Of a stretch of DNA of 64,000 nt, positions 3,424 to 61,669 are shown piece after piece. The stretch covers positions 160,001 to 224,000 of the forward strand of contig OY969622.1 in assembly GCA_963701665.1 (NCBI GenBank), written 5' to 3'. The stretch comes from Candidatus Babeliales bacterium (lineage in GTDB: Bacteria > Babelota > Babeliae > Babelales > JANWKD01). The notes beneath the pieces were generated by a model that was given only the letters and a program-made list of their open reading frames with translations, made no database searches and was not told the origin of the DNA. Both the position numbers and the translations under genes were made by a program. Each line of letters begins with the position of its first letter. The first letter of the stretch is position 1.

Positions 3424-5595
3424 ATGAACTTTTTACGTAATTTTTTAATCGCATTTGTGCTCTGTATGGGTAGTGCAGGTTTAAGCTCTATGGAGGTATC
3501 CAAGGGGCAAAAAAGCTCTTTACCTTCGCTTACAAGGCTAGCAGCAGAACAAGTACTTAAAAATGCCAGGGAGCGCGAGAGTATAGAAGAGACGCGTCAA
3601 GACATGGAACGATTACCAGAAGAAGTGCGTTTTTATGTGAGGGCATGCCACGAGGCTAGACCCCAGAGACGTAGTTTTCTACACGAGGCAACCTCAATCA
3701 GAGAAGTTATGCAATTAGTTGAAGGAATAGGGGTTAATCCAGTCTCGAAAACACGTACAGATGAAACGCCTCTTATGACGTTATTGCGTTCAGGCAAACG
3801 TGATGAAGCGTATGCATTGCTTAATTTCATGAATGCAAACAAACTCCCCTGTGATCAAAAAGATATGCATGGGCAAACTGCATTGAGTATTGCTAAACGG
3901 TTTGAAGATGAAGAAATGATCGCTCTGTTAAAAAATGAAAGGCCTAACGTTAAGCCTATTAAGCAAGAAACTATCGCAGAAGATCCAACAAACAAAATTG
4001 TAAGAAAAAAACTGAAAAAATTATTGAGCTTTCAATCATATGCAAAGGCAGAAGAATTTCTTAGAAAGTTACCTGAATCAGTTTCCTTAAGTAGTATTGC
4101 TCTCGAAGCACAAAAGCAAGATAAGTATACAGGATTAACAGCACTGCATACCGTTAATCATCCTGAACAAGTAAAGATTTTGATGCAGCTCGGTGTAGAT
4201 TTTAATATATCATCAAACGAAGGGCAAAAGCCACTTCATGTTTATATAAAAACAGGCAACTTTGATGTTGCATTAGAACTTCTTAAAATACATGATGAAT
4301 CATTGTGCATTGATGTGCGCGATCATTTGGGATGTACTCCTATTTCCTATGCAATTATTGGGAAACATAATGAACTCATTGCTATGCTTATTGCAAGAAA
4401 AGCTAATACGCGTAGCAAGATCAAGGCATGGGGAAATAGTACGTCACCGCTAGAACTTTTTTTAGATCGCCGTTTTTACAATGCTGAATTGGTGCCGCTG
4501 CTTTTTTCTCAGGATGTTCTTGCAGAATTAAGTATTCCAACGAAAATGCGGTTATTGCAACGTGCTGTTTGTTGTGATTTTGATCCTGTAAAGGAAATCC
4601 TGCTTGGTGATGAAACTTTTGAAACATTAACAGATAGCAATGGCATGAATTTTATTATGTATCTGGTGCAGAATAATCATAATGAAACGCTCAAAAAAGT
4701 ATTAAAGACTTTCAAAGATCCTGCAACACTTAAAGCTGTCTTGGAAAGAACAGATCACCGATCTCAAACAGCACTTTTTTATGCCATCTTTAAAGGGTCA
4801 AGAACATTAAAAACATTGTTAGAGCATAACGTCAATATTAATCACCAAAATAACCGTGGACATACGGTGCTTTACTTCGCTCAAGAATATAAATCACTTT
4901 TAAAACAGTTATTAAAAAAGAACCCTAACGTCAACCTTGCTTCTGTATTCGGTAGTACACCTTTACATGAAGCAGTAAAAAAAGAACATAGTGAGTGTGC
5001 TGAACTATTGCTGCAATACGGTGCAGATGTTAATGCTCAAAGCAATAACGGTGTAACACCGTTGCATGTTGCAGCTATAAAACAACCAGTATTAGTTGAT
5101 ACACTGCTTAATTATTATCCTTTAATTGATATATGCGCGCAGAGCGGAAGAACTCCTTTTATGACCACATTAGTATGTAATAATGTGGAATCAGCAAAAC
5201 TATTATTGGCAGCAGGAGCGAATCCTCTTGCAACTGATAATGATGGGAGAACAATACTCCACAACATGGTTCAGAAGCATCCTGAGAATTTCTATACTTT
5301 TGTAAAAGAAATAATATCCGTTCTTAAAACCAAAGACTCAAAGGGAAAAACAGTATCATATTTATTGAATGCTAAAGATAAAGATGGTCAAACTGTATTA
5401 CATTATGCTGCAAATAAAAAAGATTTCGGAACAGTTAAAAATCTCATTGATTTAGGTGCTGACGTTAATAGCCAAGATGATCTGGGAAGAACGCCTCTTA
5501 TGCTTGCATTAGAGAATAAGTGTGAAGGAGCAGTCAGATGCTTGCTTAAAAATCATGCGGATCAAACTATCAAAGATAGTAATGGTAATACGTAA
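3424..5595 (+). CDS. secreted ankyrin-repeat protein
   Basis: Many G.TPLH/TALH..A repeats; signal peptide ending GLSS-M. Confidence 0.92.
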   Translation: MNFLRNFLIAFVLCMGSAGLSSMEVSKGQKSSLPSLTRLAAEQVLKNARERESIEETRQDMERLPEEVRFYVRACHEARPQRRSFLHEATSIREVMQLVEGIGVNPVSKTRTDETPLMTLLRSGKRDEAYALLNFMNANKLPCDQKDMHGQTALSIAKRFEDEEMIALLKNERPNVKPIKQETIAEDPTNKIVRKKLKKLLSFQSYAKAEEFLRKLPESVSLSSIALEAQKQDKYTGLTALHTVNHPEQVKILMQLGVDFNISSNEGQKPLHVYIKTGNFDVALELLKIHDESLCIDVRDHLGCTPISYAIIGKHNELIAMLIARKANTRSKIKAWGNSTSPLELFLDRRFYNAELVPLLFSQDVLAELSIPTKMRLLQRAVCCDFDPVKEILLGDETFETLTDSNGMNFIMYLVQNNHNETLKKVLKTFKDPATLKAVLERTDHRSQTALFYAIFKGSRTLKTLLEHNVNINHQNNRGHTVLYFAQEYKSLLKQLLKKNPNVNLASVFGSTPLHEAVKKEHSECAELLLQYGADVNAQSNNGVTPLHVAAIKQPVLVDTLLNYYPLIDICAQSGRTPFMTTLVCNNVESAKLLLAAGANPLATDNDGRTILHNMVQKHPENFYTFVKEIISVLKTKDSKGKTVSYLLNAKDKDGQTVLHYAANKKDFGTVKNLIDLGADVNSQDDLGRTPLMLALENKCEGAVRCLLKNHADQTIKDSNGNT

Positions 5596-6379: not shown

Positions 6380-6476
6380 GTTGTCCTTAAAAATAATTTG
6401 AATTTTATCAAAATATATTAAAACTAATTTGATACGGATGATAAACAATTTATAAGATAGCTAAAATAATCGCAGT

Positions 6477-6881
6477 TGTCATTGCGAGCCGACATTGTCG
6501 GCGTGGCAACCCAGCTTATAAAATTTTATTTATTTTTCCTTTGAGTTGCTCATATAAATCAAACCAAGAGGGATTTATTGACTCAATAAGTTTTAATTTT
6601 TTTGTTCGTGAACCGGATTTTATTTGTTTTTCTCGAGCAATTGCTTTTAACATGTCATCGTAAAGTTCATAGTATACAAGTAAATTACAACCATGTTGCT
6701 TTGTAAATCCTTCGATCATATTATTTTTGTGTTGATACATTCTTTGCGCCAAATTAGAAGTTACCCCTGTATAAAGGGTTCCATTTCTTTTGTTAGTTAC
6801 GATGTATACTGCGGGTTGTTTCATAAGGATCTCATAATAGAATTTTATAAGCTGGGTTGCCACGCTACGCTCGCAATGACA
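6477..6881. mobile_element. REP-like inverted-repeat unit enclosing a GIY-YIG nuclease gene
   Basis: 6477-6525 and 6841-6881 are inverted copies of TGTCATTGCGAGC-loop-GCGTGGCAACCCAGCTTATAAAATT, differing only in the loop. Confidence 0.75.
6516..6824 (-). CDS. small stand-alone GIY-YIG nuclease family protein
   Basis: AVYIVTN..NGTLYTGVTSNL..R..QHK, GFT, LVYYE, AIAREKQIK, NPSW.DLY; probable start MKQPAV at 6824 because the longer track start lies inside the repeat. Confidence 0.92.
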   Translation of the reverse strand: MKQPAVYIVTNKRNGTLYTGVTSNLAQRMYQHKNNMIEGFTKQHGCNLLVYYELYDDMLKAIAREKQIKSGSRTKKLKLIESINPSWFDLYEQLKGKINKIL

Positions 6882-6932
6882 TTCTGATTATTGTGCTTGT
6901 CTTATAAATTGTTTATCACTTTAAAAAACATG

Positions 6933-7676
6933 TTAATTATTTTTATACTCAATCTCGTGCAATACAAGCCCGTGCGCGGGTGCATTTGGGAGCGCGTGAT
7001 TAGGATTTTTTGATGCCAAAACGCGTGCAACATGCTCGCGCGTTGTACGTCCGCACGCGACTTGAAGACACGCGCCAACAATGCGTCGAATCATACAATG
7101 CAAAAAACTTCTCCCTCGAACAATAATGCGATGCGCGTGCAATGGTGCATTAAAATCGCGTGAAATAGATTCGATCGCGCGTATTGAACTCTTACCCTCG
7201 ACATCCGAAGCGAATGCGCGAAAATCATGCTTACCAACAAAAAGTGTTAAAGCATGATCTAATTGCTCAAAGTCGAGTGGCTTTTTTATAAAATATCCCC
7301 AATTATTATGGGGGGGAAGTGGTTGTTCACAAAAAAAATGATACCAATAGGTTTTTTGCGCAACGTCAAAACGCGCATTGAACGCTGATGGCACTTCTTC
7401 TAACGAACGAATAACAATATCAGATGGCAGGATATTATTCCAGGCAAATAACATTTTTTGCGGATCAAATTCTTGATCAAGCACAAAAGTGGCAACTTGG
7501 CCGTATGCATGAACGCCAGCATCGGTGCGAGAAGCACCGATGAGGATAATTTTTTTTTTGAATACTAAAAAGAATGTATGTTGGAGAGTATTGGCGATTG
7601 CTGCCTGATTAGGCTGCGATTGCCATCCGGCGTATGCAGTGCCTTGATAGGCAACCACAATTTTATACGTTTTCAC
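6933..7676 (-). CDS. truA: tRNA pseudouridine(38-40) synthase
   Basis: Y.GT.YAGWQ, SRTDAGVHA.GQ, G.HDF.AF, SFLH.MIRRIVG, APAHGL. Confidence 0.96.
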   Translation of the reverse strand: MKTYKIVVAYQGTAYAGWQSQPNQAAIANTLQHTFFLVFKKKIILIGASRTDAGVHAYGQVATFVLDQEFDPQKMLFAWNNILPSDIVIRSLEEVPSAFNARFDVAQKTYWYHFFCEQPLPPHNNWGYFIKKPLDFEQLDHALTLFVGKHDFRAFASDVEGKSSIRAIESISRDFNAPLHAHRIIVRGRSFLHCMIRRIVGACLQVACGRTTREHVARVLASKNPNHALPNAPAHGLVLHEIEYKNN

Positions 7677-7679
7677 GTT

Positions 7680-9480
7680 TTATTTTCTGAGATTTGCCTT
7701 AAGAATTTTTTTGCGTAAACGAATATGCTGTGGTGTCACTTCAATAAGTTCGTCAGGCATGATCCATTCCATGCATGTTTCAAGTTCCATGGGGCGTGGT
7801 GGCGTTAATTTAATCATTTCATCAGTGCCGGAAGCGCGCATATTGGTGAGCTTTTTTTGTTTGCATGGATTAACGTCCATATCGCCTTCACGACTATTTT
7901 CACCAATAATCATGCCTTCATAAACCGGTTCACCAGGACTAACGAACAAGGTTCCACGCTCTTGTAAATTGTCGAGTGCAAATCCTGTTGCGGCGCCTGC
8001 TTCCATAGAAACGAGTGCACCTTTTGTACGGGTAGGAATGTCACCTTTATATGGCTGATAGCCATGGAACCTAAAATTAGCAAGTCCGGTGCCGCGCGTA
8101 TCAGTCAAGAATTGACTTCTAAAACCAAGAAGCCCGCGTGACGGAACTTCGAATTCTAAGCGCATGCGCCCGTTTTCATAATGGTGTATATTTTTCATTT
8201 CTGCTTTTTTTCTGCCAAGTTTTTCCATGACAACACCTTGATGTTCATCCATGATATCAACGACCAAATATTCAATTGGTTCGTATTTTGCGCCATTGAT
8301 AGTTTTATAAATAACTTCTGGCGCAGAAAGTTGTAATTCAAATCCTTCGCGACGCATATTTTCAACCAAGATACCTAAATGTAATTGTCCGCGCCCAGAA
8401 ACTTTGAACTTTTCAGATGACTCAGTCGGCTCAACGCGCAAAGCGACGTTCGTTTTTAATTCTTTTTCTAAGCGATCTTTAATTTGACGTGAAGTGAGCA
8501 ATTTGCCATCGCGTCCGCTAAATGGCGAATCATTCACAGAAAAATAAATCGAGAGTGTCGGTTCATCAATTGTAACATAGGGGTAAGGCAGAGGATGACC
8601 AACTTCACAGATGGTGGTGCCAATGGTAACCGGTTCAGAAATCCGGTCATGGCAATAATATCACCAAATTCAACCTTTGGTGTTTCAATTTTTGTAATCC
8701 TTGGAACGTGTATAATTTAGTTACTCTCATAGGTTTGCTGACAGCATCATCTTTGCAGCAAATAAATTGTTGGCCAAGGTCGAGTGAACCGCTAAAAACA
8801 CGGCCAATTGCAATAGGTCCTAAGAAATCTGAATGATCCAAACTGGTGACAAGCACTTGTAAATGATCGCTTTTATTGACGGGCGCTGGAATTGTTTTGA
8901 TAATCGTTTCAAATAACGGTTTCATATCGCCAGACATGAGGCTTGGATCAAAATTAGCAAATCCTAATTTTGATGAACCATATAAAATAGGAAATTCAAG
9001 TTGACTTTCGTTCTGCGCAAGATCAAGAAACAGATCATGAATTAAACGCTCAGTTCCTGCAATATCAGCATCTTTACGATCAATTTTATTAATGAGAACA
9101 ATCGGCTTTAAATTAAGCTCGAGTGCTTTTCGTAATACAAAACGAGTGCCTGGCAAAACGCCTTCGGCAGCATCAACTAAGAGAAGAAAACCCTCGACCA
9201 TTTGGAGCGTACGTTCAACTTCACCGCCAAAATCACTGTGGCCCGGAGTATCAACGATATTAATAATATAATCGCCGTAGGTGATACCAGTATTTTTTGC
9301 CAAAATGGTAATACCGCGCTCTTTTTCAAGGGCGTTGGAATCCATAACACGCTCGGTTACATCACTGATGGTGCCAGATTGACGCAATAATTTATCAACG
9401 AGCGTCGTTTTGCCATGGTCAACGTGAGCGATAATAGCAATATTGCGAAGATTAGATCGTTCTTGGGCTTTCATAGTCAT
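7680..9480 (-). CDS. typA: translational GTPase TypA/BipA, split by two apparent single-base homopolymer deletions
   Basis: N-half NIAIIAHVDHGKTT, ERGITI, DTPGHSDF, NKID; C-half GRGQLHL, RREGFE, KKLTNMRASG; intervening residues recoverable in shifted frames. Confidence 0.93.
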
Positions 9481-11708: not shown

Positions 11709-12623
11709 ATGATTAAAATTGATTATCTGAATGGAAATGAGAAGACAATGCTTACAGGAAATCGCATAAAATTTATCACCACTTTATCTCTAGTATTTTT
11801 GCTTATACCGCAGAAAACTTATTCTATGGACGTAGCAAAGAATATAGAAGAAAAGATTGACCCTCTTGTCGAAAGATTTGTCAGGGATCAATTGTCTAAA
11901 TGTGGCTTTAAGGATCGAGAATCAGTAGGTTTGAGAAAAACTAAAGGCGATCGCTGGTGTGCCTCTACAGTCGACGGGCGGCCAACGATATTTATTGCAG
12001 GCCACGATGTCTTACAATACTATCTAGAGAAAAAATACTCACGCCCAAATTCCCCACTAGCAAAACTGTCTTTAAAAGATTCTTTACAAGAGAAAGTAGT
12101 TTTTCAAGGTGAAGATGGAAAAATTGTTACCAGATCCATCGATGACTATTTAAAGCAAAGAGCTGCATGTGTGCACCATGAAGGTGGCCATATTCTTAAT
12201 AAAGATTTTAGTTTGTGGACAGACAGTCTCAACTCATATTACTTTGGATTTGCATGTGGGGCTTTATTAAGTCCTCTCGCTTTTTTATGTAAATCAAAAA
12301 AGATTTCACTGCCGCTTTTCAGCGCAACTTTTATAGTTCCTTCATATCTCGGTCAAAAGCTTCTTTATCGATATTCTCAATATAGAGAAGCACGCGCTGA
12401 CGAAACAATTGCAGATAATATTCATCTTTTACGTGCCTATAAGCAATGTCTAAAGGATAATTTATTTTTATTTCCCAAATTATGGGAAAATCATAAAATA
12501 CATCCTCATCCTACAGTTAGTAGCAAAAGACTCAAAGAACGCATTAGAAAGATCAAAGAAAAAGGTGATCCAAAGGCATTTGAAGATCCTTTGGTGTTTA
12601 AAGAAGAATCAGAAATAAAATAA
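11709..12623 (+). CDS. secreted M48-like Zn metallopeptidase (array gene 1)
   Basis: HEGGH, EARAD, HPHP; likely start 11748. Confidence 0.8.
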   Translation: MIKIDYLNGNEKTMLTGNRIKFITTLSLVFLLIPQKTYSMDVAKNIEEKIDPLVERFVRDQLSKCGFKDRESVGLRKTKGDRWCASTVDGRPTIFIAGHDVLQYYLEKKYSRPNSPLAKLSLKDSLQEKVVFQGEDGKIVTRSIDDYLKQRAACVHHEGGHILNKDFSLWTDSLNSYYFGFACGALLSPLAFLCKSKKISLPLFSATFIVPSYLGQKLLYRYSQYREARADETIADNIHLLRAYKQCLKDNLFLFPKLWENHKIHPHPTVSSKRLKERIRKIKEKGDPKAFEDPLVFKEESEIK

Positions 12624-13601
12624 ATGGAGTTATGTATGAAAAAGTTAACATGTCTGAGTTATTTTCTGTTAATAATATTTTGTGTGGGTTTTTACGAAAA
12701 ATCATTGGGTATGAATGCAGCTTTTCCCGTGGTGGTTTCGTCTGATTTTAGACCACAAGAAATTTGTCAGACGAATATAGCAAAAACTCCGGAAGAGGAG
12801 ATTGATCCTCGTGTAGAAAAATTTGTAAAAGGCCAATTGTCTCGATGCGGCTTTAAAGATCAAAAATCATTGTGCATGATAAAAAGCAATAACTGGGCTG
12901 TTGGGTTTGCTTATGATGGAAGGCCATATGATAGAAGACCAGTAGTTTTTATCGCGCGTCATGACCTTCTAAAACATTGTCTAAAGGAAAAGTACTCATT
13001 CCGAAACTATGTATTGGAAAAACTGTTTTTAAAAAATTATCTACAAAGAAAACTGGTTTTTCAAAGAAACGATGGAAAAACGCTTTCCAGATCTGTTGAT
13101 GAATATTTAAAACAAGAAGCTGCTGTAGTGCAACATGAAGGTGGCCATCTTATGGATAATTTGCCTGCGCTATGGAATGATTATAATGATCCTACAAGAG
13201 AAGTATGTACCTATGGATCTGCATGCGGGGCACTGTTAAGCCCATTTGCCTTTCTATGTAAATCAAAAAAAATTGCACTGCCGCTTTTTGGCGCAATGGT
13301 TATAGCGCCTTCATATTTAGGTCAAAAATTGATTTACCGCTATATGCAATATAGAGAGTTTCGAGCTGATGATAACGTTCAAGATAATATTCATCTTTTA
13401 CGTGCTTTGAAGCAGCATTTAAAAGATCATTTATTTATAGATCACGCATATTTTCGGGAGAATCCAAAGGATACTACCCATCCTCATCCAAGAATTCGCA
13501 TCAGACGAATCAAAGAACGCATTAGAAAGATCAAAGAAAAAGGTGATCCAAAAGCATTTGAAGATCCTTTGACAGTCAAAGAAGATGCTGAAATGAAATA
13601 A
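12624..13601 (+). CDS. secreted M48-like Zn metallopeptidase (array gene 2)
   Basis: HEGGH, EFRAD, THPHP; likely start 12636 after GGAG. Confidence 0.8.
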   Translation: MELCMKKLTCLSYFLLIIFCVGFYEKSLGMNAAFPVVVSSDFRPQEICQTNIAKTPEEEIDPRVEKFVKGQLSRCGFKDQKSLCMIKSNNWAVGFAYDGRPYDRRPVVFIARHDLLKHCLKEKYSFRNYVLEKLFLKNYLQRKLVFQRNDGKTLSRSVDEYLKQEAAVVQHEGGHLMDNLPALWNDYNDPTREVCTYGSACGALLSPFAFLCKSKKIALPLFGAMVIAPSYLGQKLIYRYMQYREFRADDNVQDNIHLLRALKQHLKDHLFIDHAYFRENPKDTTHPHPRIRIRRIKERIRKIKEKGDPKAFEDPLTVKEDAEMK

Positions 13602-14534
13602 ATGGAGTTATGTATGAAAAAGTTAACATGTCTGAGTTATTTTCTGTTAATAATATTTTGCCTGGGTTTTTACGAAAAATCATTGGGTATGAATGCAGCT
13701 TTTCCCGTGGTAATTTCATCTGATTCTAGATTAAAAGAAATTTATCAGACGAATATAGCAGAAAGTCCAAAAGAGGAAATCGATCCTCTTGTAGAAAAAT
13801 TTGTAAGAAGCCAACTATCTCAAGGCGGCTTTAAAGATCAAGAATCATTGCATATGAGAAGAGCTAAGGACAATAAATGGTCCGCTGGATTTGAACATGA
13901 TAAAAGTCCAAGAATATGGATCGCAGATCACGATGTTTTAAAATATTGTCTAACAAGAAAGTTCTCGTCGCAAGATTATTCTCAAGAAAAAGTAATTAAA
14001 AAAAATATAGATTTACACAGTAGAACTATTAATAGATCTATTGATGAATATTTAGAGCAAGCAGCTGCAGCGGTGCAACACGAAGGGGGACATATCATTA
14101 ATAAAGATACTCACATGTGGCATGCTGCTGCCTATGGATTTGCAGGTGGCGCTTTATTTAGCCCATTTGCTTTTTTATGTAAATTGAAAAAAATTTCGCT
14201 GCCACTTTTTTGCGGCATAACATTTATAGTTCCGACATGTCTAAGTCAAAATATTGTTTATCGATATTCGCGCTATACAGAACTCCGGGCAGATGGTGCA
14301 ATTCAAGATAATATTCATCTTTTACGTGCTTTTAAACAGTATATAAAAGATCATGTATTTTTAAACGCCGAATATTATATTGAAAATCAAGAAAATAATA
14401 CTCATAATACTCATCCTCACCCAGAAATTCGTATCAAACGATTGAAAAAACGAATTAAAGCACTCAAAGAAAAAGGTGATCACAGAGCATTTGAAGATCC
14501 TTTGGCAATCAAAGAAAATGCTGAAATGAAATAA
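13602..14534 (+). CDS. secreted M48-like Zn metallopeptidase (array gene 3)
   Basis: HEGGH, ELRAD, THPHP; likely start 13614. Confidence 0.8.
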   Translation: MELCMKKLTCLSYFLLIIFCLGFYEKSLGMNAAFPVVISSDSRLKEIYQTNIAESPKEEIDPLVEKFVRSQLSQGGFKDQESLHMRRAKDNKWSAGFEHDKSPRIWIADHDVLKYCLTRKFSSQDYSQEKVIKKNIDLHSRTINRSIDEYLEQAAAAVQHEGGHIINKDTHMWHAAAYGFAGGALFSPFAFLCKLKKISLPLFCGITFIVPTCLSQNIVYRYSRYTELRADGAIQDNIHLLRAFKQYIKDHVFLNAEYYIENQENNTHNTHPHPEIRIKRLKKRIKALKEKGDHRAFEDPLAIKENAEMK

Positions 14535-14545
14535 ATGGGGAAATT

Positions 14546-15592
14546 ATGATCGCTAAAAATTACATGAAGTTTTTTGTCCTTATAATGTGTCTTGGCATCT
14601 TAGCGCCTGGCAAAGCATATGGTATGAATACTTTTAAGCATCATTATCAAACTTTCAAACAAAATTTTACATGGAAAAAAACAGCTATAGCTGGGATTAC
14701 TGGGTCATGTACCTTGGCCAATTATTTAATTGCAGGATCGATCTATAAAGAGTTTGTTCCAATAGAAGAGTGCTTAAATGATTATGAAACTAAGAAATAT
14801 TATGAAAAACAGTTTGAACAACTGCCAAACGTGAGTCCCGAAGTTGAATTTTTTATAAAAAAATATTTGAAAGAAAGTGGTGTAAAAGATTGCGGTCAAA
14901 TAAAAGTAAAACGAATCAACGGGGGAAATAAAGCTTCATGGGGCGTAGTATGTACATCAAAGTCAACGTGGTTCTTAGTCCCTGCTAACGAGGCAAGAAC
15001 TTTGGAACTGGCATTCGATATGCAGCGTGTTGGATTAATGAAATGGATGGAGGAACATGAACGCAAGATTACCGAGCAAGAGCATATTAATCTTTTTACG
15101 GAAACTATAGCAATCGTTAATCATGAAGCTGCTCATATTATAAATGGGGATCAGGGAAGACTTAAATATGCAGCAATGCTTGCTCCTTTAGCAGGTGCAA
15201 CATGTGGCATTATAATAAGAAAAAATTTCATTCCAAAAAATTGGTACTGGTCCACTAATTTAAATAAAATTTTTAATGGATTTATATTAGGAACATATAG
15301 TCCGTATGCTTATTACAAATATAAACGATTTAGAGAACTGAAGGCGGACGATAATACACAAGATAATGTTCACATCCTAAGGGCAGCAATCAAGTTTCAC
15401 AAAAGAAACCTAGAGCAGAATAAAGAAATTTATGAAAAAGAAAATTGCTGGCCTAACAAATTTCTTAGTGCTCATCCTCATCCAAAAACTCGCATCAAGC
15501 GACTCAAAGAACGCATTAGAAAGATCAAAGAAAAAGGTGATCCAAAAGCATTTGAAGATCCTCTGACAATCAAAGAGTCTGAAATAAAATAA
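14546..15592 (+). CDS. secreted M48-like Zn metallopeptidase (array gene 4)
   Basis: HEAAH, ELKAD, AHPHP. Confidence 0.8.
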   Translation: MIAKNYMKFFVLIMCLGILAPGKAYGMNTFKHHYQTFKQNFTWKKTAIAGITGSCTLANYLIAGSIYKEFVPIEECLNDYETKKYYEKQFEQLPNVSPEVEFFIKKYLKESGVKDCGQIKVKRINGGNKASWGVVCTSKSTWFLVPANEARTLELAFDMQRVGLMKWMEEHERKITEQEHINLFTETIAIVNHEAAHIINGDQGRLKYAAMLAPLAGATCGIIIRKNFIPKNWYWSTNLNKIFNGFILGTYSPYAYYKYKRFRELKADDNTQDNVHILRAAIKFHKRNLEQNKEIYEKENCWPNKFLSAHPHPKTRIKRLKERIRKIKEKGDPKAFEDPLTIKESEIK

Positions 15593-16609
15593 ATGGAGTT
15601 ATGTATGAAAAAGTTAACCTGCCTTAGTTATTTTCTGTTAATAATTTTTTGCCTAGGTGTTTATGAAAAATCATTTGGCATGAACGCTTTCAAACAAAAT
15701 TTTACCTGGAAAAAAGCAGCTCTTGTGGGAATTGCAGGAGGATGCACCGTAGGAGAATATGCGCTAGGAGCCTCAGATTACTTTACTTTGGTTAGGCCGC
15801 AAAGTAATTTTCATGATTTAGAAGAAAAGCTATTAAAATCGGATGATGTTGATCCGATTGTTGAATCTTTTGTAAGAAAACATTTGATAAGAAATGGCAT
15901 TGCTGATCAAAGCAGCTTGAAAGTAAAACAAGTAGATTGGATAAATGACTGGGCAGCTACAGTAACGAATAATTATAAATGGATACTGGTAAAACCAGAT
16001 CGAGCAAATGCCCTTGCGGTGATTTTAAATATTCCTGATTCTCGATGTGATTCAAACGCGATAGAAAAAACCCTTGGACATGGTTATATGGTGAGAATGT
16101 CTCTTAATGACTTTAAAAAAGAAACTATAGCAATTTTGCATCATGAGGCTGGACATATTAAAAATGAAGATGTGAAAAAAGGAAAGTATGCCGTGATAGG
16201 CATTCCCTTAAGCGTTGCAACAATGAGTTATGCGCTGAGGAAAAAAGTAATAGCGCCTCAATACTTTTGGACGAACAATATTACTAAATTATTAAGCGGT
16301 CTTTGTATTGGCAACTTGAGCGCCATTGGGTATTATCAATTTACTAAACATAGAGAATTAAAAGCAGACGATAATGTTGCTGATAATATTCATTTGTTGC
16401 AAGCAAAAAAACAAGAAATGAAATGTTATGTCTTGAATGATCAGCAAAATGATCAACAGCCTTCATTGTATCAACAACTTTTAGAAAAACATCCTCGTCA
16501 TAAAGTACGCCTTAAACGACTCAAAAAGCGTATTAAGGTGATCAAAGAAAAAGGTGATCCAAAAGCATTTGAAGACCCTTTGGCAATCAAAGAGTCTGAA
16601 ATAAAATAA
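15593..16609 (+). CDS. secreted M48-like Zn metallopeptidase (array gene 5)
   Basis: HEAGH, ELKAD, KHP; likely start 15605. Confidence 0.8.
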   Translation: MELCMKKLTCLSYFLLIIFCLGVYEKSFGMNAFKQNFTWKKAALVGIAGGCTVGEYALGASDYFTLVRPQSNFHDLEEKLLKSDDVDPIVESFVRKHLIRNGIADQSSLKVKQVDWINDWAATVTNNYKWILVKPDRANALAVILNIPDSRCDSNAIEKTLGHGYMVRMSLNDFKKETIAILHHEAGHIKNEDVKKGKYAVIGIPLSVATMSYALRKKVIAPQYFWTNNITKLLSGLCIGNLSAIGYYQFTKHRELKADDNVADNIHLLQAKKQEMKCYVLNDQQNDQQPSLYQQLLEKHPRHKVRLKRLKKRIKVIKEKGDPKAFEDPLAIKESEIK

Positions 16610-16631
16610 ATGGAATTAATGGAGGTTATTC

Positions 16632-17621
16632 GTGAAAACATTAAAAACATATGGTTATTTTTTAGCTACAATTCTTTGTTTGCTTTGTTTTTCTGAAGCA
16701 TATAGCATGAGTGCCTTTAAGCAACGCTTTAATACGTTCACGCAAAATTTTTCTTGGAAAAAAGCAGCGGCAGTTGGTTTTGCGGGTCTATGCTCACTCG
16801 AGCATGTTAGGTTAGCCACTAGAAAAATATCGCCTACGATATTTTTAGATGATCATGAGAGTAACAAGTTAAGGGATGAGGAATTTGAGAAACTTCCTGA
16901 TGTACTTCCCGAAATTGAAGTTTTTGTTAAAGAACATTTAAAGAATTGTGGCGTAACAGAGTTAAAGAATTTAAAAATCAAAGAATATATAGAATGGGGT
17001 ACGGAAACTACTAAAAATCATACATGGTTTTTTGTACCAGCATCTAATAAATTGCAACTTTCACTTGATATGCCAAAGAAAATTGATGATGAAATAAAAA
17101 AATATTTAAAAGATCTTGAAAGAGAAGCGATAGCGAGTGTTTATCATGAAGGTGGTCATATCAAAAATAAGGATAATGAAAAGCTACCAGCAATTACTCT
17201 AGGATGTCTAGCCGCAAATGCTGCAATTAGTTTTGGTGTAAGAAAAAAATTCATCCCAAAAAACAATTATTGGTTTCATAACCTTGCCAAGATTATTAGT
17301 GGTATGACTATCAGTAATGCTAATTTGTTTGAATATTATCAATTTAAAAAATATTGTGAATTAAAAGCTGATGATAATGTTCAAAATAATGTTCATATAT
17401 TGAAGGCTGCAAAAAATATATTTGAAAGGGATTTGAGGAAAAAGATTCTCTATGGAAACTACTACGGTAAATTTTCTTCTAAAAATTTTTATTCAAAGCA
17501 TCCACATCCAGAAACTCGTATTAAGCGATTCAAAAAACGCATAAAAGCACTCAAAGTAAAGAGTGATCCAAAAGCATTTGAAGATCCTTTGGCGGTCAAG
17601 GAAGAGGCGCAGCTAAAATAG
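16632..17621 (+). CDS. secreted M48-like Zn metallopeptidase (array gene 6)
   Basis: HEGGH, ELKAD, KHPHP. Confidence 0.8.
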   Translation: MKTLKTYGYFLATILCLLCFSEAYSMSAFKQRFNTFTQNFSWKKAAAVGFAGLCSLEHVRLATRKISPTIFLDDHESNKLRDEEFEKLPDVLPEIEVFVKEHLKNCGVTELKNLKIKEYIEWGTETTKNHTWFFVPASNKLQLSLDMPKKIDDEIKKYLKDLEREAIASVYHEGGHIKNKDNEKLPAITLGCLAANAAISFGVRKKFIPKNNYWFHNLAKIISGMTISNANLFEYYQFKKYCELKADDNVQNNVHILKAAKNIFERDLRKKILYGNYYGKFSSKNFYSKHPHPETRIKRFKKRIKALKVKSDPKAFEDPLAVKEEAQLK

Positions 17622-18306
17622 CTAATTTAAGCAAAAAAATGGTTTCATTTTTAAGATTGGCTTTAGCCCAAGCTTTTTGTTTTGCATCTAAAAGTTCCCC
17701 TATGCCTGAAAGAATATTACGATTACTCATCTCTTCTAACTCATAAATACATATTTGCAAAAAATCTTGGTACTTCATACGAGTTCTTTGTTCAACAATA
17801 TGCTTATTAATTGGCCAATTATTGCTTAAAAAATACCACACATCAAAAATATCACGATTTGCTTCTCCTATTCTTTCATGCATTGCAACAAGTTTATGAG
17901 CAGCCATATCTTCTTGCTTCATTACTTTCATTGATATGCCAAGATATTCTTTGATTTCATAGTGCGAGCCAAAACCTCTTTTGTTGATTTCGATTTTAAT
18001 ATTTTGCCCATCTTTTGCTTTTTGATCATAAGAAAGCAAAAAAAATAGAGTATGTCTTTTCTTGGTAGCTTTTTTTATGGTGCCATATTTTTCTAAAATC
18101 TTTTTAAGTTCGTCAATAACAGAATCTTCTTTGCTTATATCTAAAAGATCAAAATCCAAATCTACTGAAAAGCGATTTAATCCGTAAAACAACATGGCAG
18201 CGGTGCCACCTTTAAAGCCCATTACAGGTCCAATATTAGGATTTGTAAAGACATCTTTGAGTATTTTGATGAGGATATTTTTATGTTGCGCATGATCGAG
18301 TGTCAT
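17596..18306 (-). CDS. AbiEii-family nucleotidyltransferase toxin (type IV TA)
   Basis: FKGGTA, RFSVDLDF, AHKL.A, RDIFD motifs. Confidence 0.92.
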   Translation of the reverse strand: MTLDHAQHKNILIKILKDVFTNPNIGPVMGFKGGTAAMLFYGLNRFSVDLDFDLLDISKEDSVIDELKKILEKYGTIKKATKKRHTLFFLLSYDQKAKDGQNIKIEINKRGFGSHYEIKEYLGISMKVMKQEDMAAHKLVAMHERIGEANRDIFDVWYFLSNNWPINKHIVEQRTRMKYQDFLQICIYELEEMSNRNILSGIGELLDAKQKAWAKANLKNETIFLLKLAILAAPLP

Positions 18307-39470: not shown

Positions 39471-39642
39471 TTTTAACATACAAGGAGCATAGCGACGTAG
39501 GGATCCAGTCTTTAAAATGAAAAACCTTATCAGACTGGATTCCTACGACAACTTCGTTGTCTCAGAATGACGTCTTTTCTCTAGGCATATTTTTCTCGTG
39601 TGTTGAATGTTTATTGAATTTTAGGAATAGATCTAAGCAAAA

Positions 39643-40893: not shown

Positions 40894-41059
40894 TGTCTTC
40901 CCGAGGCTTTAGCCCTTCTTCGCTGAAGCTTCGCAGGGTTCAGAACCGTGGGGACCTGTTCTTCGAAGTTTTAACGAAGGAGAATCCAAACTTTAATAAC
41001 TTCCTTAAAAATGAATTGATTTTATAAGCTGGGTTGCCACGCATTCGCTCGCAATGACA
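40894..41059. repeat. REP-like doublet with two nested palindromic insertions
   Basis: Matches the reverse complement of 43826-43931 apart from insertions at about 40913-40938 and 40955-40984. Confidence 0.85.
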
Positions 41060-41172
41060 ATTCTCGTTTCAATATGCATTTCCTTTGGCAAAGTTACCAT
41101 CAAATTCGCGCTTTTATTACTATTATTACTGTAAGCACATTCAAAGCTTGGTTGCAAGAGAATATACAGCTG

Positions 41173-43825: not shown

Positions 43826-43931
43826 TGTCATTGCGAGCGAATGCGTGGCAATCCAGATAATAAAATTAATTCCTTAAAGGAATCTATTAAAGTTCTGGAT
43901 CTCCCACGGCGCTCTGCGCCTCGGGATGACA
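43826..43931. repeat. REP-like doublet
   Basis: TGTCATTGCGAGC..CGTGGCAATCCAG-spacer-CTGGATCTCCCACGG..CCTCGGGATGACA. Confidence 0.88.
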
Positions 43932-53063: not shown

Positions 53064-53375
53064 TTAATCCCTCTTGCGTTTAAGGATAGCATCGGTTTCT
53101 CTGCGTTTATTGTTTAGATAGGTAGCTGCGCAAAAAGTAACTGTGCCAAGTATCCACGGGACAAGTTCATTATCGGGACAACAAATTTTTCCTATGATAC
53201 CTGATGCAATACAAGGACCGCAGGTGTTGATCATATCTTCGCAGGAGGGGCCTTCATCATTGTCTGAGAAAATTTTGATTGGACTATAATGACATTTTTT
53301 TGTTGATTCGTGCATACCATGCAGTGTGCTGCTCAAAAATAGTAGTAAGAACAAGATCAATAAAAGAATATTCAT
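53064..53375 (-). CDS. small secreted Cys-rich membrane protein
   Basis: Signal peptide LHG-M; ends KRKRD. Confidence 0.7.
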   Translation of the reverse strand: MNILLLILFLLLFLSSTLHGMHESTKKCHYSPIKIFSDNDEGPSCEDMINTCGPCIASGIIGKICCPDNELVPWILGTVTFCAATYLNNKRRETDAILKRKRD

Positions 53376-53384
53376 GCTGAAGCC

Positions 53385-55049
53385 TTAATAAATCAGATAT
53401 GCTGTTGCAATTATAATCAATAAAAAGACGGTAGGCCAGTAGCACAACTTGAATATTAAATTGTTTTGATACATAAAGAATTGAAGATCACCACGTACGG
53501 CAAACACAATACTGTTAATAACAACGCCGATGATAATAAAGTAGCTGATAAGATAAATGTATTCTAAGTAGACGAGCCCTTCAGTCATTAAGAGCTGGCG
53601 TAAATTTATTTCGCTCGTGATTAAGACAAATAATAATGCGCTGCATACGCCAATAACGCTCAAGGTTGAAAAGCCTACAATATCGATCAATGTTTCTTGC
53701 TTTAAGAATGCCATTAACAGAATAAATAGGGTAGTGAAGACAACGAATAATAGAACAAAATGCATAATAAAACCGCCGCCAGGTCTTCGTTGCGCATCAA
53801 TAATAAATTGGAGATAGGGCATATTGTTATAAGAAAATTCTGGGAATCCTAACGTTGTCTTAAAATTATGGAGCTCATAATTAAAATAGCTTTTTATAAG
53901 ATGCCAATGCGTAAGAAGTGCAATTTTTGATGAAATACCTGGTAACAAAATCGAGTTAATGACCTTATAAGAACTTAAATCAGGTACGAGTGCAATATTT
54001 TTTTCAAAATTCTTATGTAATAGATTGAGGACAATATGGCGATGATCAAAAGGATAAAGCCGCGCGTTAAAAGTTTCATAAAGGTTACAAGAAAACGACC
54101 AGCACACCGTTTCTTCATCCTTATTAGTTTGACGATATAATTCTTGTTTAGTAGAGGTATAAGCATTAGGGAAAATGACATCACGATCGAGACCTGCATG
54201 TTCTTTAGCGTTATATTTTTGCCAAATATATCCTCTTAAAAAGACGCCTGGATGAATGTCAGCACCTTGTTGCGTGAATTGTGCATGTTCTACAAAAACT
54301 CCTGTTGGCACCGTCGTAAATTTTTGGTTTGTTTTTTGCTGTAATTTTTTGAAAAAATATAATTCCTGACCTTTTGAAAGAATCGGCATTGTTTTTAAAT
54401 TTTCTTGAAATCCAACAGAATGATGTAATGACCAAAGATAACGTATCTCTGTCAGCATCGCAAATGAGATTAGTATTACGATATACCACCATAATACTGG
54501 ATTAATAAAAAAGAATATGCCGAATATGAGTATCAAACAGCAGACCCCTAAAAGAATAGTTAAACTCAGCAAAATAAGGATATGCCGTTCTTCAACGACA
54601 ACAAATTTTTTTAGTTCATCGGGGAAAAAAATGAGACCATGGACCGTAGTATCTGCGTTTAACAGAAATAGTTCTACAGAGTTTCCTTGTAGATCTTTAA
54701 GATTGTGGATGAGCAGTTCTTTTTGGGTCTTGAGATCTGTTAAAATCGTAGCTATTCTGCTTTGTTCAGATGCATCGAACAGTTCACTCAATTTTTTTTC
54801 TGGCATCTCATTCAATAAAGGATGAGATACTAAGGTGCCATCTAAAGAGCCGGTGAAAGAATAACCAAGCTCAGGATATTCGCGCGCTATTTCTTGTTTG
54901 AGGATTGTTATTAATTTTTTATTGAGTGCAATGCGTTGTAGATATAAATAACTTGCAAGTACTACGCTTATAATAACAAGACAGCTGAGCACAGCTATAA
55001 TAATTTTTTTCATACAAAAGTCGCCCTTAATTTGTTTAGGTAACACCAT
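53385..55049 (-). CDS. membrane protein with pentameric ligand-gated ion channel-like C-terminal region
   Basis: GYIWQ, LYPFD loop, R followed by four TM helices; extra N-terminal TM/periplasmic region. Confidence 0.65.
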   Translation of the reverse strand: MVLPKQIKGDFCMKKIIIAVLSCLVIISVVLASYLYLQRIALNKKLITILKQEIAREYPELGYSFTGSLDGTLVSHPLLNEMPEKKLSELFDASEQSRIATILTDLKTQKELLIHNLKDLQGNSVELFLLNADTTVHGLIFFPDELKKFVVVEERHILILLSLTILLGVCCLILIFGIFFFINPVLWWYIVILISFAMLTEIRYLWSLHHSVGFQENLKTMPILSKGQELYFFKKLQQKTNQKFTTVPTGVFVEHAQFTQQGADIHPGVFLRGYIWQKYNAKEHAGLDRDVIFPNAYTSTKQELYRQTNKDEETVCWSFSCNLYETFNARLYPFDHRHIVLNLLHKNFEKNIALVPDLSSYKVINSILLPGISSKIALLTHWHLIKSYFNYELHNFKTTLGFPEFSYNNMPYLQFIIDAQRRPGGGFIMHFVLLFVVFTTLFILLMAFLKQETLIDIVGFSTLSVIGVCSALLFVLITSEINLRQLLMTEGLVYLEYIYLISYFIIIGVVINSIVFAVRGDLQFFMYQNNLIFKLCYWPTVFLLIIIATAYLIY

Positions 55050-56029: not shown

Positions 56030-56592
56030 ATGACAGAAAACCCCAGGGTTTTAAACCTGGGGATGAATGTCATCAAATGCGCGAGTAAAGCAAAAATGTA
56101 AATTTTTGCGAAGCGAGGTTCGTTTTGTCATACTAATGGTATGGCAAAGAAATATTGGCACGGAGCGCATACAACACATAGGCACATGTATCATATAGTT
56201 TGGTTACCGAAATATAGAAAAAAAGTATTAGAAGGAAACGTTAAGAGTAGGTTAGGAGAACTCTTGCGAGAATGTGCAGAAATTAATGCATGGGAAATTC
56301 AGGAATTAAATATTCAGATAGACCATGTACATCTTGTAATACAGTTACCACCAAGTATAAGTGTGAGCAAGGCCGTTCAACTACTCAAAGGCATTTCAAG
56401 TAAAATGCTTAGAACTGAATTGCCTGAAATAAAGAAATTTTTGTGGGGTAATGATTTTTGGGCGGATGGATATTTCTCCGAAACATTTGGACATTGTTCG
56501 GAAGAGACAATTCTCAATTATGTTAGAAATCAATAAAAAGCTTTCATCTCGTGCTTCTAAATCCACGGCTTTTAAGCCGTGTGTTGTTTAAT
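56030..56592 (+). mobile_element. IS200/IS605-family element carrying tnpA only
   Basis: Subterminal hairpins CCCCAGG..CCTGGGG (56041-56062) and CACGGCTT..AAGCCGTG (56564-56581); exact ends uncertain. Confidence 0.8.
56141..56536 (+). CDS. tnpA: IS200/IS605 Y1 HUH transposase
   Basis: HIVWLPKYRK, DHVHL, LW...FW..GYF, YVRNQ. Confidence 0.95.
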   Translation: MAKKYWHGAHTTHRHMYHIVWLPKYRKKVLEGNVKSRLGELLRECAEINAWEIQELNIQIDHVHLVIQLPPSISVSKAVQLLKGISSKMLRTELPEIKKFLWGNDFWADGYFSETFGHCSEETILNYVRNQ

Positions 56593-56711
56593 AATATTTA
56601 TCCTATAATCCCATTTGTCTATTTTTGATCAAAATAGTATCCTTGGTATTAGATTAACGCAAATTCGATACATTGAATTTTGCTTCACAAAGATAACCTT
56701 GAAAACAAAAT

Positions 56712-56815
56712 TGTCATTGCGAGCGAAGCGTGGCAACCCAGCTTATAAAATTAGCTCCTTTTAAGGAATTATTAAAGTTCTGGGTCACCACGTTACTACG
56801 TTCCTCGTGATGACA
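56712..56815. repeat. REP-like doublet
   Basis: Left arm nearly identical to the GIY-YIG-flanking repeats; spacer similar to the 43826 copy. Confidence 0.88.
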
Positions 56816-56896
56816 TTTCGAGATATTTTTATTCAGTGATAAGTCGATAATTTTTTTTATCGAATTTACGTTGGATAACCATTAGGGACCTATTCC

Positions 56897-57704: not shown

Positions 57705-57803
57705 TGTCATTCTGAGGCGCCTTGGTGCCGTAGGAATCCAATCTGATAAGGATTTTCATTTTAAAGACTGGATCACTACGTCGCTTTGCTCCTCATGATG
57801 ACA
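57705..57803. repeat. REP-like doublet, intact homolog of the IS110 target
   Basis: TGTCATTCTGAGG..CCGTAGGAATCCA-spacer-CTGGATCACTACGTCGCTTTGCTCCTCATGATGACA. Confidence 0.88.
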
Positions 57804-60550: not shown

Positions 60551-61669
60551 ATGAGTGGGTTCATGATAGAAAAAATGCACAGATATTATTTTTTATTAAT
60601 TCTTTTACTTGCGATGGCGGCATATGGCATTTCATCAAATAGGGTTGTTGCAACCATTAATGTGGGAGTCACTCCTGCGGGCATTGCACTGACGCCCAAT
60701 AATAAGTTTGCCTATGTAGCGAATAATAATAACTATGGAATTATGAATGGCGATAGCGTGAGTGTATTAAACTTGAAAAATAATACTCAGCAACAAATTA
60801 TTAATGATGCAAGTTTTAATCAGCCTTATACCGTAACTATTAACGCAGCAGGTACAAAAGCGTATGTGACCAATAGTAACGGTGCAACAATAACTATTAT
60901 TAATATACCATCGAATACGGTGATAGGTACCATTACAGGGTTTGATGGGCCTTCGGGCATGGTTATAACGCCTGATGGTAATACAGCCTATGTTAATAAT
61001 TATGGTGGGCCTATTGCAGGTAGTGGTTTTGGGACAACAGTCAGTGTTGTTAATTTGAATACAAACACTATTGTTGGTACCATTACCGTGGGGCAAGCAC
61101 CTGCTGCATTGGCAATAACGCCGGATGGTGCATTTGTGTATGTTGCTAATTACATTTTAGGTAACCCCGGTATGGGCACGGTAAGTGTTATACAAACAAG
61201 TAATAATACTGTTATTCAGACGATCCCAGGTTTTTCAGGTCCCTTTGCCATTGAAATAACGCCCAATGGCGAATATGCGTACGTAACTAATTTTGGCAGT
61301 AATAATTTTAATCCAATAGGAACAACGGTCAGTGTTATTGATTTGAGCAGTAATACGATTAGTGAGACGATTAATGTCGGCATCCAGCCATCGGGTATTG
61401 CTATTACGCCAGATGGGTTATATGCCTATGTAACGAATTATGACACGCTGTACACCGATACTACGAAATTTACTGGCTTAACGGCGGGTCAAGGCGTCGT
61501 GAATATTATTGATATCACAACTAACACGGTCATCCCTCCTGTAATTGCCGTTGAACAGTCTCCTGCGAACATTGCGATATCATCAAATGGTAAATATGCC
61601 TATGTTACCAATTTTACATCTAACACGGTGAATGTTCTTAACATTCTTGAAAGAATGTGGTTAAAATAA
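60551..61669 (+). CDS. YVTN-repeat beta-propeller protein
   Basis: Seven repeats of P.GIAITPDG..AYV(T/A)N....TVSVI. Confidence 0.92.
   Translation: MSGFMIEKMHRYYFLLILLLAMAAYGISSNRVVATINVGVTPAGIALTPNNKFAYVANNNNYGIMNGDSVSVLNLKNNTQQQIINDASFNQPYTVTINAAGTKAYVTNSNGATITIINIPSNTVIGTITGFDGPSGMVITPDGNTAYVNNYGGPIAGSGFGTTVSVVNLNTNTIVGTITVGQAPAALAITPDGAFVYVANYILGNPGMGTVSVIQTSNNTVIQTIPGFSGPFAIEITPNGEYAYVTNFGSNNFNPIGTTVSVIDLSSNTISETINVGIQPSGIAITPDGLYAYVTNYDTLYTDTTKFTGLTAGQGVVNIIDITTNTVIPPVIAVEQSPANIAISSNGKYAYVTNFTSNTVNVLNILERMWLK

Follow-up and report, generated by a model that had tools for sequence, protein, structure and literature searches.

A gene for a small nuclease that lies between two inverted hairpin repeats, copies of which recur elsewhere in gene-free pairs, raises the question of what the nuclease does to the hairpins and what spread them. 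The locus is part of the window, i.e., the whole 64,000-nucleotide stretch of Candidatus Babeliales bacterium DNA that was analysed, and the home genome (G000) is a single contig of 1.34 Mb. An earlier note on this DNA had proposed a candidate autonomous element, the nuclease of which recognises or nicks the hairpins and spreads or maintains them. As detailed below, the gene-plus-hairpin unit is already known, and the variant anatomy found here points to an IS982 transposase, and not to the nuclease, as the likely mover.

The ssn cassette and its nuclease

The locus reads as it had been described, with inverted arms at 6477-6525 (plus strand) and 6841-6881 (minus strand) around a GIY-YIG gene of about 102 amino acids, the TAA stop codon of which (6516-6518) falls within the left repeat. 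The features are as follows.

6421-6434, plus strand: candidate decayed IS982-type terminal repeat, identical at 8 of 14 positions to the intact end of the G001 (congener) cassette; alone not significant
6439-6471, plus strand: outer flank, repeating 6886-6918 in inverted orientation and homologous to that of the G001 cassette
6477-6525, plus strand: downstream arm, consisting of a GTC-tagged bulged hairpin (6478-6511) and an inner flank with the stop codon
6516-6824, minus strand: ssn gene, 102 amino acids, single-domain GIY-YIG nuclease
6841-6881, minus strand: upstream arm, consisting of a GTC-tagged bulged hairpin (6855-6880) and an inner flank
6886-6918, minus strand: outer flank, inverted copy of 6439-6471
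6933-7676, minus strand: truA-like pseudouridine synthase, co-oriented with ssn and upstream of it

Both arms are of type A, their loops differ, and the upstream arm alone folds weakly (z +0.4). The inverted symmetry of the cassette reaches about 40 nt beyond the tags (85% between 6439-6471 and 6886-6918). Promoter-like sites at 6442-6470 (plus) and 6887-6915 (minus), called by consensus and matching it at 9 of 12 positions, are mirror images that point inward.

Several other features of the window may be recorded here. Next to truA, a GTPase gene, which resembles typA/bipA, is split in two ORFs (7680-9480, minus strand); its G001 orthologue and the truA gene there are likewise interrupted, possibly by assembly indels. 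A 723-residue ankyrin-repeat protein is encoded at 3424-5595 (plus strand), and the region 12000-17700 holds a tandem array of six paralogous genes, each about 1 kb long, the repeat sequence of which reads as containing an HExxH-like motif. Six 43-nt coding repeats spaced by about 150 nt (60683-61613) suggest a beta-propeller fold.

By its sequence, the focal 102-residue protein is an Ssn-family single-strand DNA nuclease. GIY-YIG was the sole Pfam family that it matched (E 2.2e-17). It was identical at 50 of 89 positions (56%; E 3e-34) to a 94-residue Neisseria gonorrhoeae protein, 89 residues of which were aligned, where similarity had been defined as E<1e-10 with no less than 75% of the query covered. 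The gonococcal orthologue, the gene of which matches both published ssnA primers exactly, served as stand-in for N. meningitidis SsnA, and in the alignment the catalytic residues Y7, Y18 and E65 of the focal protein correspond to Y6, Y17 and E64 of SsnA. Compared with the published oligonucleotide list, the focal arms have the Ssn layout: the GTC-tagged hairpins are oriented, and both the essential G and the post-stem C are present. The dN/dS of the focal gene was 0.08-0.20 against five homologues, and 0.08-0.28 over the 15 pairs of six ssn genes; its closest homologue loci were labelled Babeliales. Other searches returned at most a weak UPF0213 match in the PDB (E 0.006) and a sub-threshold intron-endonuclease match in NCBIfam for the protein; for the window, Rfam yielded no match.

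The published degenerate SRM string matched the right focal arm with one mismatch and the left with more than two, and in G000 it occurred once, i.e., at chance level (0-1 in three Markov controls). It was also unusable as a detector for the bulged hairpins, with the two sides flagged together at just 5 of the 80 homologue loci. However, this mismatch does not exclude Ssn membership, because only 42% of the published Ssn homologues are flanked by SRM on both sides (PMC11893778, accessible text).

There are four ssn paralogues in G000 (100, 78, 69 and 60% identity), each between inverted arms, and the one at G000:974631 has the A+B layout of the gene-free doublets; a direct copy of its upstream arm and leader, without the gene, was seen 503 bp downstream (G000:C1:975070). 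Close homologues occupy non-orthologous loci in G000, G001, G003 and G004. In the best 80 of 245 confirmed homologue loci, of which 2 are close Babeliales copies, arms detected by a pairing rule faced inward on both sides at 41 loci, compared with 1 among 72 distal windows and none in 50 shuffles; at least one inward arm was present at 66 of the 80, and outward arms on both sides at 19. A previous detector with an energy cut-off had been insensitive and noisy (both sides at 14 of 80 loci; 10 of 72 distal windows per side) and was replaced. The repeat was also present in 5 of 40 relatives, all five of which carry a homologue at E<1e-15, these relatives being kin and statistically not independent. 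Four further relatives have a homologue at E<1e-15 with straight hairpins or none of the bulged pattern. The gene and the hairpins are, in short, linked, and the palindrome enrichment around homologues, which the earlier note had suggested looking for, was found.

Two side observations concern other loci. At L007 and L008 (G027 and G015), the ssn ORFs run through the downstream hairpin and acquire long C-terminal tails. More distant small GIY-YIG genes at G000:C1:499338-499560 and 350380-350640 are flanked by another, GC-rich hairpin family, pieces of which are nested within some arms, e.g., at window position 40895.

A quickly built tree of 114 proteins, for which the motif columns had been retained, separated 79 bulged-hairpin proteins from 26 straight-hairpin proteins by a branch with support 99; the Neisseria protein fell on the straight side, and 9 proteins were unlabelled. 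Coinciding with this split, the residues after the catalytic Glu read xSRxKK in the bulged and WxRxWK in the straight group. Since the split is a single change, the agreement of protein and hairpin is a clade-level match and not repeated co-evolution. The substrates in the oligonucleotide list of PMC11893778, as far as accessible, are straight hairpins. The bulged-hairpin subclade, which is large and overlooked by the published motif, may be a source of new ssDNA-cutting specificities.

Dispersed hairpins and their outer ends

A hairpin pattern built from the arms had 101 matches in G000 versus 0 for the reversed control, and a looser scan kept 184 of 191 candidate arms, in 110 sites. These make up 68 inverted pairs and 48 singletons, the partner often being degenerate. 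The stems covary strictly around an unpaired G, such that 182 of the 184 arms, in nine stem types, pair perfectly at four stem positions, although this perfection is partly a product of the filter. None of the 62 gene-free pairs shorter than 200 bp had same-type arms, i.e., all are heterodimers, with spacers mostly of 42-44 nt. By a crude ORF call, 101 of the 110 sites are intergenic, and 87 have tandem or convergent ORFs on their two sides; the predicted fold of whole doublets is strong (z -4.3 and -4.8). The copies in the window are listed below.

56657-56871, no strand: 215-bp MITE, an A+D doublet (56713-56814) enclosed by intact IS982-type ends; exact target duplication absent
43827-43930, no strand: gene-free A+B doublet; outer end not significant
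40895-41058, no strand: gene-free doublet with an enlarged partner arm; one IS982-type end at 41098-41111 (minus strand)
57706-57802, no strand: gene-free C-type doublet with a 32-nt spacer
39538-39571, minus strand: C-type arm; partner degenerate

The arm does recur in gene-free doublets, at 56713, 43827 and 41058, as had been noted, but those doublets are heterodimers whereas the focal cassette has two A-type arms. Similarly, the doublet had been taken as the repeated unit, and hairpin pairs do occur far above chance, but the true repeat unit measures about 200 bp and extends beyond the doublet of about 100 bp.

The semi-conserved flank outside the doublets terminates in an IS982-type end motif. 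Among 31 matches to the TAACGCRAAYTCGAT-type motif in G000, 28 lie no more than 90 nt outside an arm, where 0.19 would be expected. A profile for this end, at a 1% shuffle threshold, detected it at 62 of 184 arms in G000, located 20-85 nt outside the hairpins, and at 35 of 75 in G001. Of the 24 well-preserved elements, defined by no more than two mismatches per end, 6 were bordered by exact target duplications of 5-7 bp, compared with 5 of 552 mismatched-pair controls. Thus, part of the doublets carry both transposon-like ends and duplications. It is to be noted that some of the same counts speak against an IS982 mover: 122 of the 184 G000 arms have no significant end, both ends are found at only 22 of 67 inverted-pair sites even with 3 mismatches allowed, and 18 of the 24 well-preserved elements have no exact duplication of at least 5 bp. 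In addition, no significant pair of ends was detected at the four ssn cassettes of G000 or at the second cassette of G001.

A possible source of the ends was found in other Babelota. The end motif of the doublets also bounds a 1014-bp element of G040, which encodes an IS982 transposase (NF033520, E 3.3e-75), and a broken 982-bp copy in G004. IS982 ends are described as 5'-AC(N6)T, with duplications of 2-10 bp (PMC7335449, accessible text); the doublet family, like the G001 cassette, has terminal inverted repeats that start with 5'-AC and are common to an IS982-family element. The one IS982 detected in G000 has other ends, and none was found in G001 (95% complete), so that the spread would be old or the transposase would have been lost. 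The G000 element (G000:C1:26198-27136, approximately) is intact, with an apparent 7-bp duplication, and sits beside a doublet.

Other candidate sources were discarded. IS630 was not found in G000 or G001, and the IS5-type copies of G000 have no matching end motif. IS200-like Y1 transposase ORFs occur in G000 as five identical copies (three in tandem) and one broken copy, at window position 56141-56533 (plus strand) and at G000:C1:79824, 1253004-1254528 and 53104-53495; the window copy is 120 bp from the MITE at 56657. As these multi-copy ORFs are IS200-like and not bracketed by arm pairs, a RAYT was rejected as the mover. Insertion of ssn at the exact doublet centre was likewise rejected, the TAAGGA junction fitting three G000 paralogues but not homologues elsewhere.

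Empty sites, which the earlier note had also suggested looking for, were indeed present in the congener. In a comparison that covered 1.17 of the approximately 1.5 Mb of G001, the two genomes being only about 75% identical, synteny placed 44 of the 110 G000 sites, of which 34 had no arm in G001 and 10 had arms in both. The size difference was 150-260 bp at 23 of the 34 empty sites and 60-149 bp at none; the other 11 fell outside 150-260 bp, and adjacent sites, in two pairs, cannot count as independent. In all 8 cases compared, one of them marginal (46 vs 44), the G001 site was matched more closely after in-silico removal at the outer ends than after a cut at the tags, although this comparison is biased by construction, since larger cuts discard more unalignable DNA.

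The congener also offered a complete cassette of the end-hairpin-ssn-hairpin-end form, 523 bp in length (G001:C3:532870-533392), with strong ends on both sides; the orthologous gap in G000 is 58 bp. Its duplication is of only 2 bp, which counts against an IS982 mover. The focal cassette (6421-6933) can be aligned with it across gene, arm and downstream outer flank as far as the decayed end at 6421-6434, and has this one end by alignment, neither side exceeding the profile threshold. From this alignment, the focal cassette is likely a homologue of the G001 cassette with a decayed end. Behind truA in G001, ssn is absent and one B-type arm is present, such that this is not a clean empty site.

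Deletion derivatives with ssn fragments are present at several G001 loci. Elements with interiors of 47-152 nt preserve the cassette's 5' leader and its 3' end, and ssn coding matches above all 60 shuffles were obtained in 10 of 43 arm-side tests, representing 7 distinct elements; in five of these, coding nucleotides of about 218-253 adjoin the leader, and the remaining two retain different parts of the coding sequence. The deletion junction is common to dispersed loci, which implies that copying followed the deletion. The notion of a parent cassette and its derivatives, as put forward earlier, is therefore sustained by the dispersed G001 elements that keep pieces of ssn. In the short doublets of G000, coding remnants were detected in 1 of 27 tested, likely by chance, and the short spacers were directly seen to resemble the 3' flank of the 974631 paralogue.

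End-bounded hairpin elements are not confined to the focal genus. The end-plus-tag pattern occurred in 19 of 251 Babelota genomes, although several had single matches that may be due to chance; 10 of the 19 have an ssn homologue at E<=1e-15, versus 53 of 251 overall. It also matched 30 metagenome loci, 9 of them with both ends around hairpins; 4 of these 9 have exact duplications of 6-8 bp, and in none of the 9 was ssn found inside. In the 50 genomes of other phyla that were scanned, out of 78 in all and chosen because they carry the Ssn clade of the focal protein, the pattern was at chance level (3 vs 7 in the control); thus, IS982 cannot be the general explanation for the hairpin repeats. 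As side observations, short end-bounded elements with other hairpin types were seen in G015, G028, G033 and G040, and a 990-bp IS982-type end pair (L214:192-1181, G030) surrounds a GIY-YIG gene of another subfamily, with hairpins.

The mover of the cassette and its derivatives

We consider it rather probable that the Ssn nuclease binds and nicks its flanking hairpins, while the cassette and its derivatives have been moved as passengers between IS982-type ends by a transposase acting in trans. The nuclease half has close precedents. According to the accessible text of PMC11893778, SsnA binds the GTC-tagged hairpin as single-stranded DNA only and cuts a few nucleotides upstream, 5 nt 5' of the tag G as derived from a 20-nt product and oligonucleotide NTS75; it spares the reverse strand of its repeat, and hairpin recognition and nicking were demonstrated in vitro for four Ssn homologues. 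The idea that the nuclease recognises or nicks the hairpins was thus right in kind, and the earlier remark that no mechanism had been demonstrated holds for mobilisation but not for recognition and nicking, whereas the accompanying claim of spreading fared poorly. By analogy, the focal Ssn would recognise bulged GTC-tagged hairpins in transient single-stranded DNA and may cleave them, with predicted nicks about 5 nt outside each tag, near 6472/6473 (plus) and 6885/6886 (minus).

As to movement, an ancestral ssn cassette would have been captured between IS982 ends, internal deletions would have turned it into MITEs, and an IS982 DDE transposase would have copied these in trans to AT-rich intergenic sites, cassette, deletion and amplification presumably succeeding one another in this order. 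The focal copy probably arrived by the same route, the cognate transposase having presumably been lost since. The IS982-type ends, target duplications and empty-site sizes make ssn look like a passenger, and they point to ends of the element outside the hairpins, so that the claim of an autonomous element is not supported. Moreover, since gene-less hairpin pairs carry IS982 ends, a borrowed transposase, and not the nuclease, likely spread them. The host may benefit, e.g., by trimming of incoming single-stranded DNA as in Neisseria, where SsnA lowers transformation by hairpin-bearing DNA (PMC11893778, accessible text). A ComEC-domain ORF is present in both G000 and G001, so that, by analogy, such a role on incoming DNA is possible.

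The main competitor, which we regard as unlikely, is that Ssn itself is the mover in the manner of a RAYT, nicking the hairpins for host repair to paste tag-to-tag units, with IS982 ends acquired by one sub-lineage. Such a role would agree with the tight linkage of gene and hairpins across phyla, the one-to-one match of hairpin shape and protein clade, the purifying selection on four paralogues, and the hairpins of other phyla, which occur without IS982-type ends, just as most arms and all four cassettes of G000 have no significant ones. Nonetheless, a tag-to-tag unit predicts a doublet-length difference, which was seen at 0 of 34 empty sites; conservation extends 30-65 nt past the predicted cut, and the target duplications are located at the IS ends. 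GIY-YIG cleavage, in addition, is hydrolytic and is not known to include a strand-transfer step. Finally, although the hypothesis has been published (PMC11893778), SsnA according to the same source, as far as accessible, cleaves one strand orientation only; as the forward strand alone is cut, an inverted pair would receive one cut per strand, which does not amount to excision.

The order of events could also be reversed, in that plain IS982 MITEs came first and hairpin units were placed in them later, through recombination stimulated by Ssn or in some other way. Different hairpins and unrelated interiors do occur in end-bounded elements of other Babelota and of metagenome contigs, and the L214 end pair encloses a different GIY-YIG gene. 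However, no hairpin-free end pair was seen in G000, where 28 of 31 motif matches adjoin an arm, outer flank and arm type are both common within subfamilies, and several G001 derivative loci have a deletion junction in common, all of which make such nesting quite improbable. More remote still, and in our judgement very improbable, is that the repeats persist chiefly in the role of RNA elements (terminators or stabilisers), with gene conversion keeping them uniform and the linkage to the nuclease being historical. The intergenic location of 101 of 110 sites, 87 between tandem or convergent ORFs, and the strong whole-doublet folds (z -4.3 and -4.8) would suit RNA elements, but 34 of 44 syntenic sites are empty in the congener, the window has no Rfam match, and the strict stem covariation around the unpaired G fits read-out by a protein.

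Returning to the preferred combination of a hairpin-nicking nuclease and a transposase in trans, a bolder extension, which we advance tentatively and hold to be somewhat doubtful, is that IS982 and Ssn formed a lasting partnership: a transposase-less cassette delivers the nuclease with its sites, and the derivatives, carried by IS982 transposase, seed the chromosome with about 100 new targets, together constituting an ssDNA restriction system. If true, this partnership would offer one concrete explanation for the dispersal of CGTC repeats, which lack their own transposase; the bulged-hairpin subclade would then represent a candidate Ssn specificity class.

Relation to known systems

Published precedents for the combined system were sought. 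In our literature search, mostly outside subscription journals, IS982 ends were nowhere connected with Ssn hairpins or with ssn as a passenger, and the DNA motifs turned up unrelated primers; a plasmid search returned 33 records, none informative on mobility. Among 12 of the 14 supplementary files of PMC11893778, there is one Babeliae genome, listed without SRM and without ssnA.

The closest relative is the Ssn/SsnA system (Chenal et al. 2025, PMC11893778; accessible text), which has in common with the focal locus a single-domain GIY-YIG protein of about 95-100 residues with Tyr, Tyr and Glu at the same spacing, flanking GTC-tagged hairpins that end in a conserved C, and many dispersed copies. 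In contrast, the focal hairpins are bulged and miss the SRM string, and the tags point outward, not toward the gene as in the Neisseria locus; the protein reads KSGSRTKK in place of the KKWNRAWK of SsnA and belongs to a separate, well-supported subclade, and the IS982-type outer ends go unmentioned in the accessible part of that paper. The CGTC-tagged REPs (Di Nocera et al. 2013, PMC3733652; accessible text) are similar in their TGTC/CGTC tag, the AT at the stem base and the CCA-like tail, and likewise form intergenic inverted dimers, frequently heterodimers; they differ from the present repeats, which have a bulged stem, a linked nuclease gene and IS982-type ends.

With respect to the outer ends, the best parallel is the IS982-derived MITECca01 of Cardinium (PMC9769881; accessible text), also in a host-associated bacterium, with a size of about 180-300 bp, 5'-AC ends in common with an IS982 of about 1 kb, short AT-rich target duplications and intergenic spread. 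The interior here, however, is an Ssn hairpin pair from an ssn cassette and not transposase remnants, a passenger-gene form exists, and the intact parent is absent from the same genome; hairpin cargo is not mentioned in the accessible text of that paper. The RAYT/TnpA(REP) genes and their REPINs also comprise a small nuclease gene between its own palindromes and gene-free doublets genome-wide, but the gene of the focal cassette has no HUH/Y1 domain and lies at different loci in congeners, and target duplications and terminal repeats are present here. The parallel to RAYT/REPIN and IS/MITE pairs, drawn in the earlier note, was in fact already in print as a hypothesis, NTS-ssnA-NTS having been likened to IS and REP/TnpA systems (PMC11893778, accessible text).

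Against these systems, the locus adds a testable route of spread, from an ssn cassette in IS982-type ends, through fragment-bearing derivatives, to short doublets, accompanied by target duplications and empty sites. It bears on the domestication hypothesis of PMC11893778, and on the CGTC repeats, for which no dedicated transposase was found (PMC3733652, accessible text).
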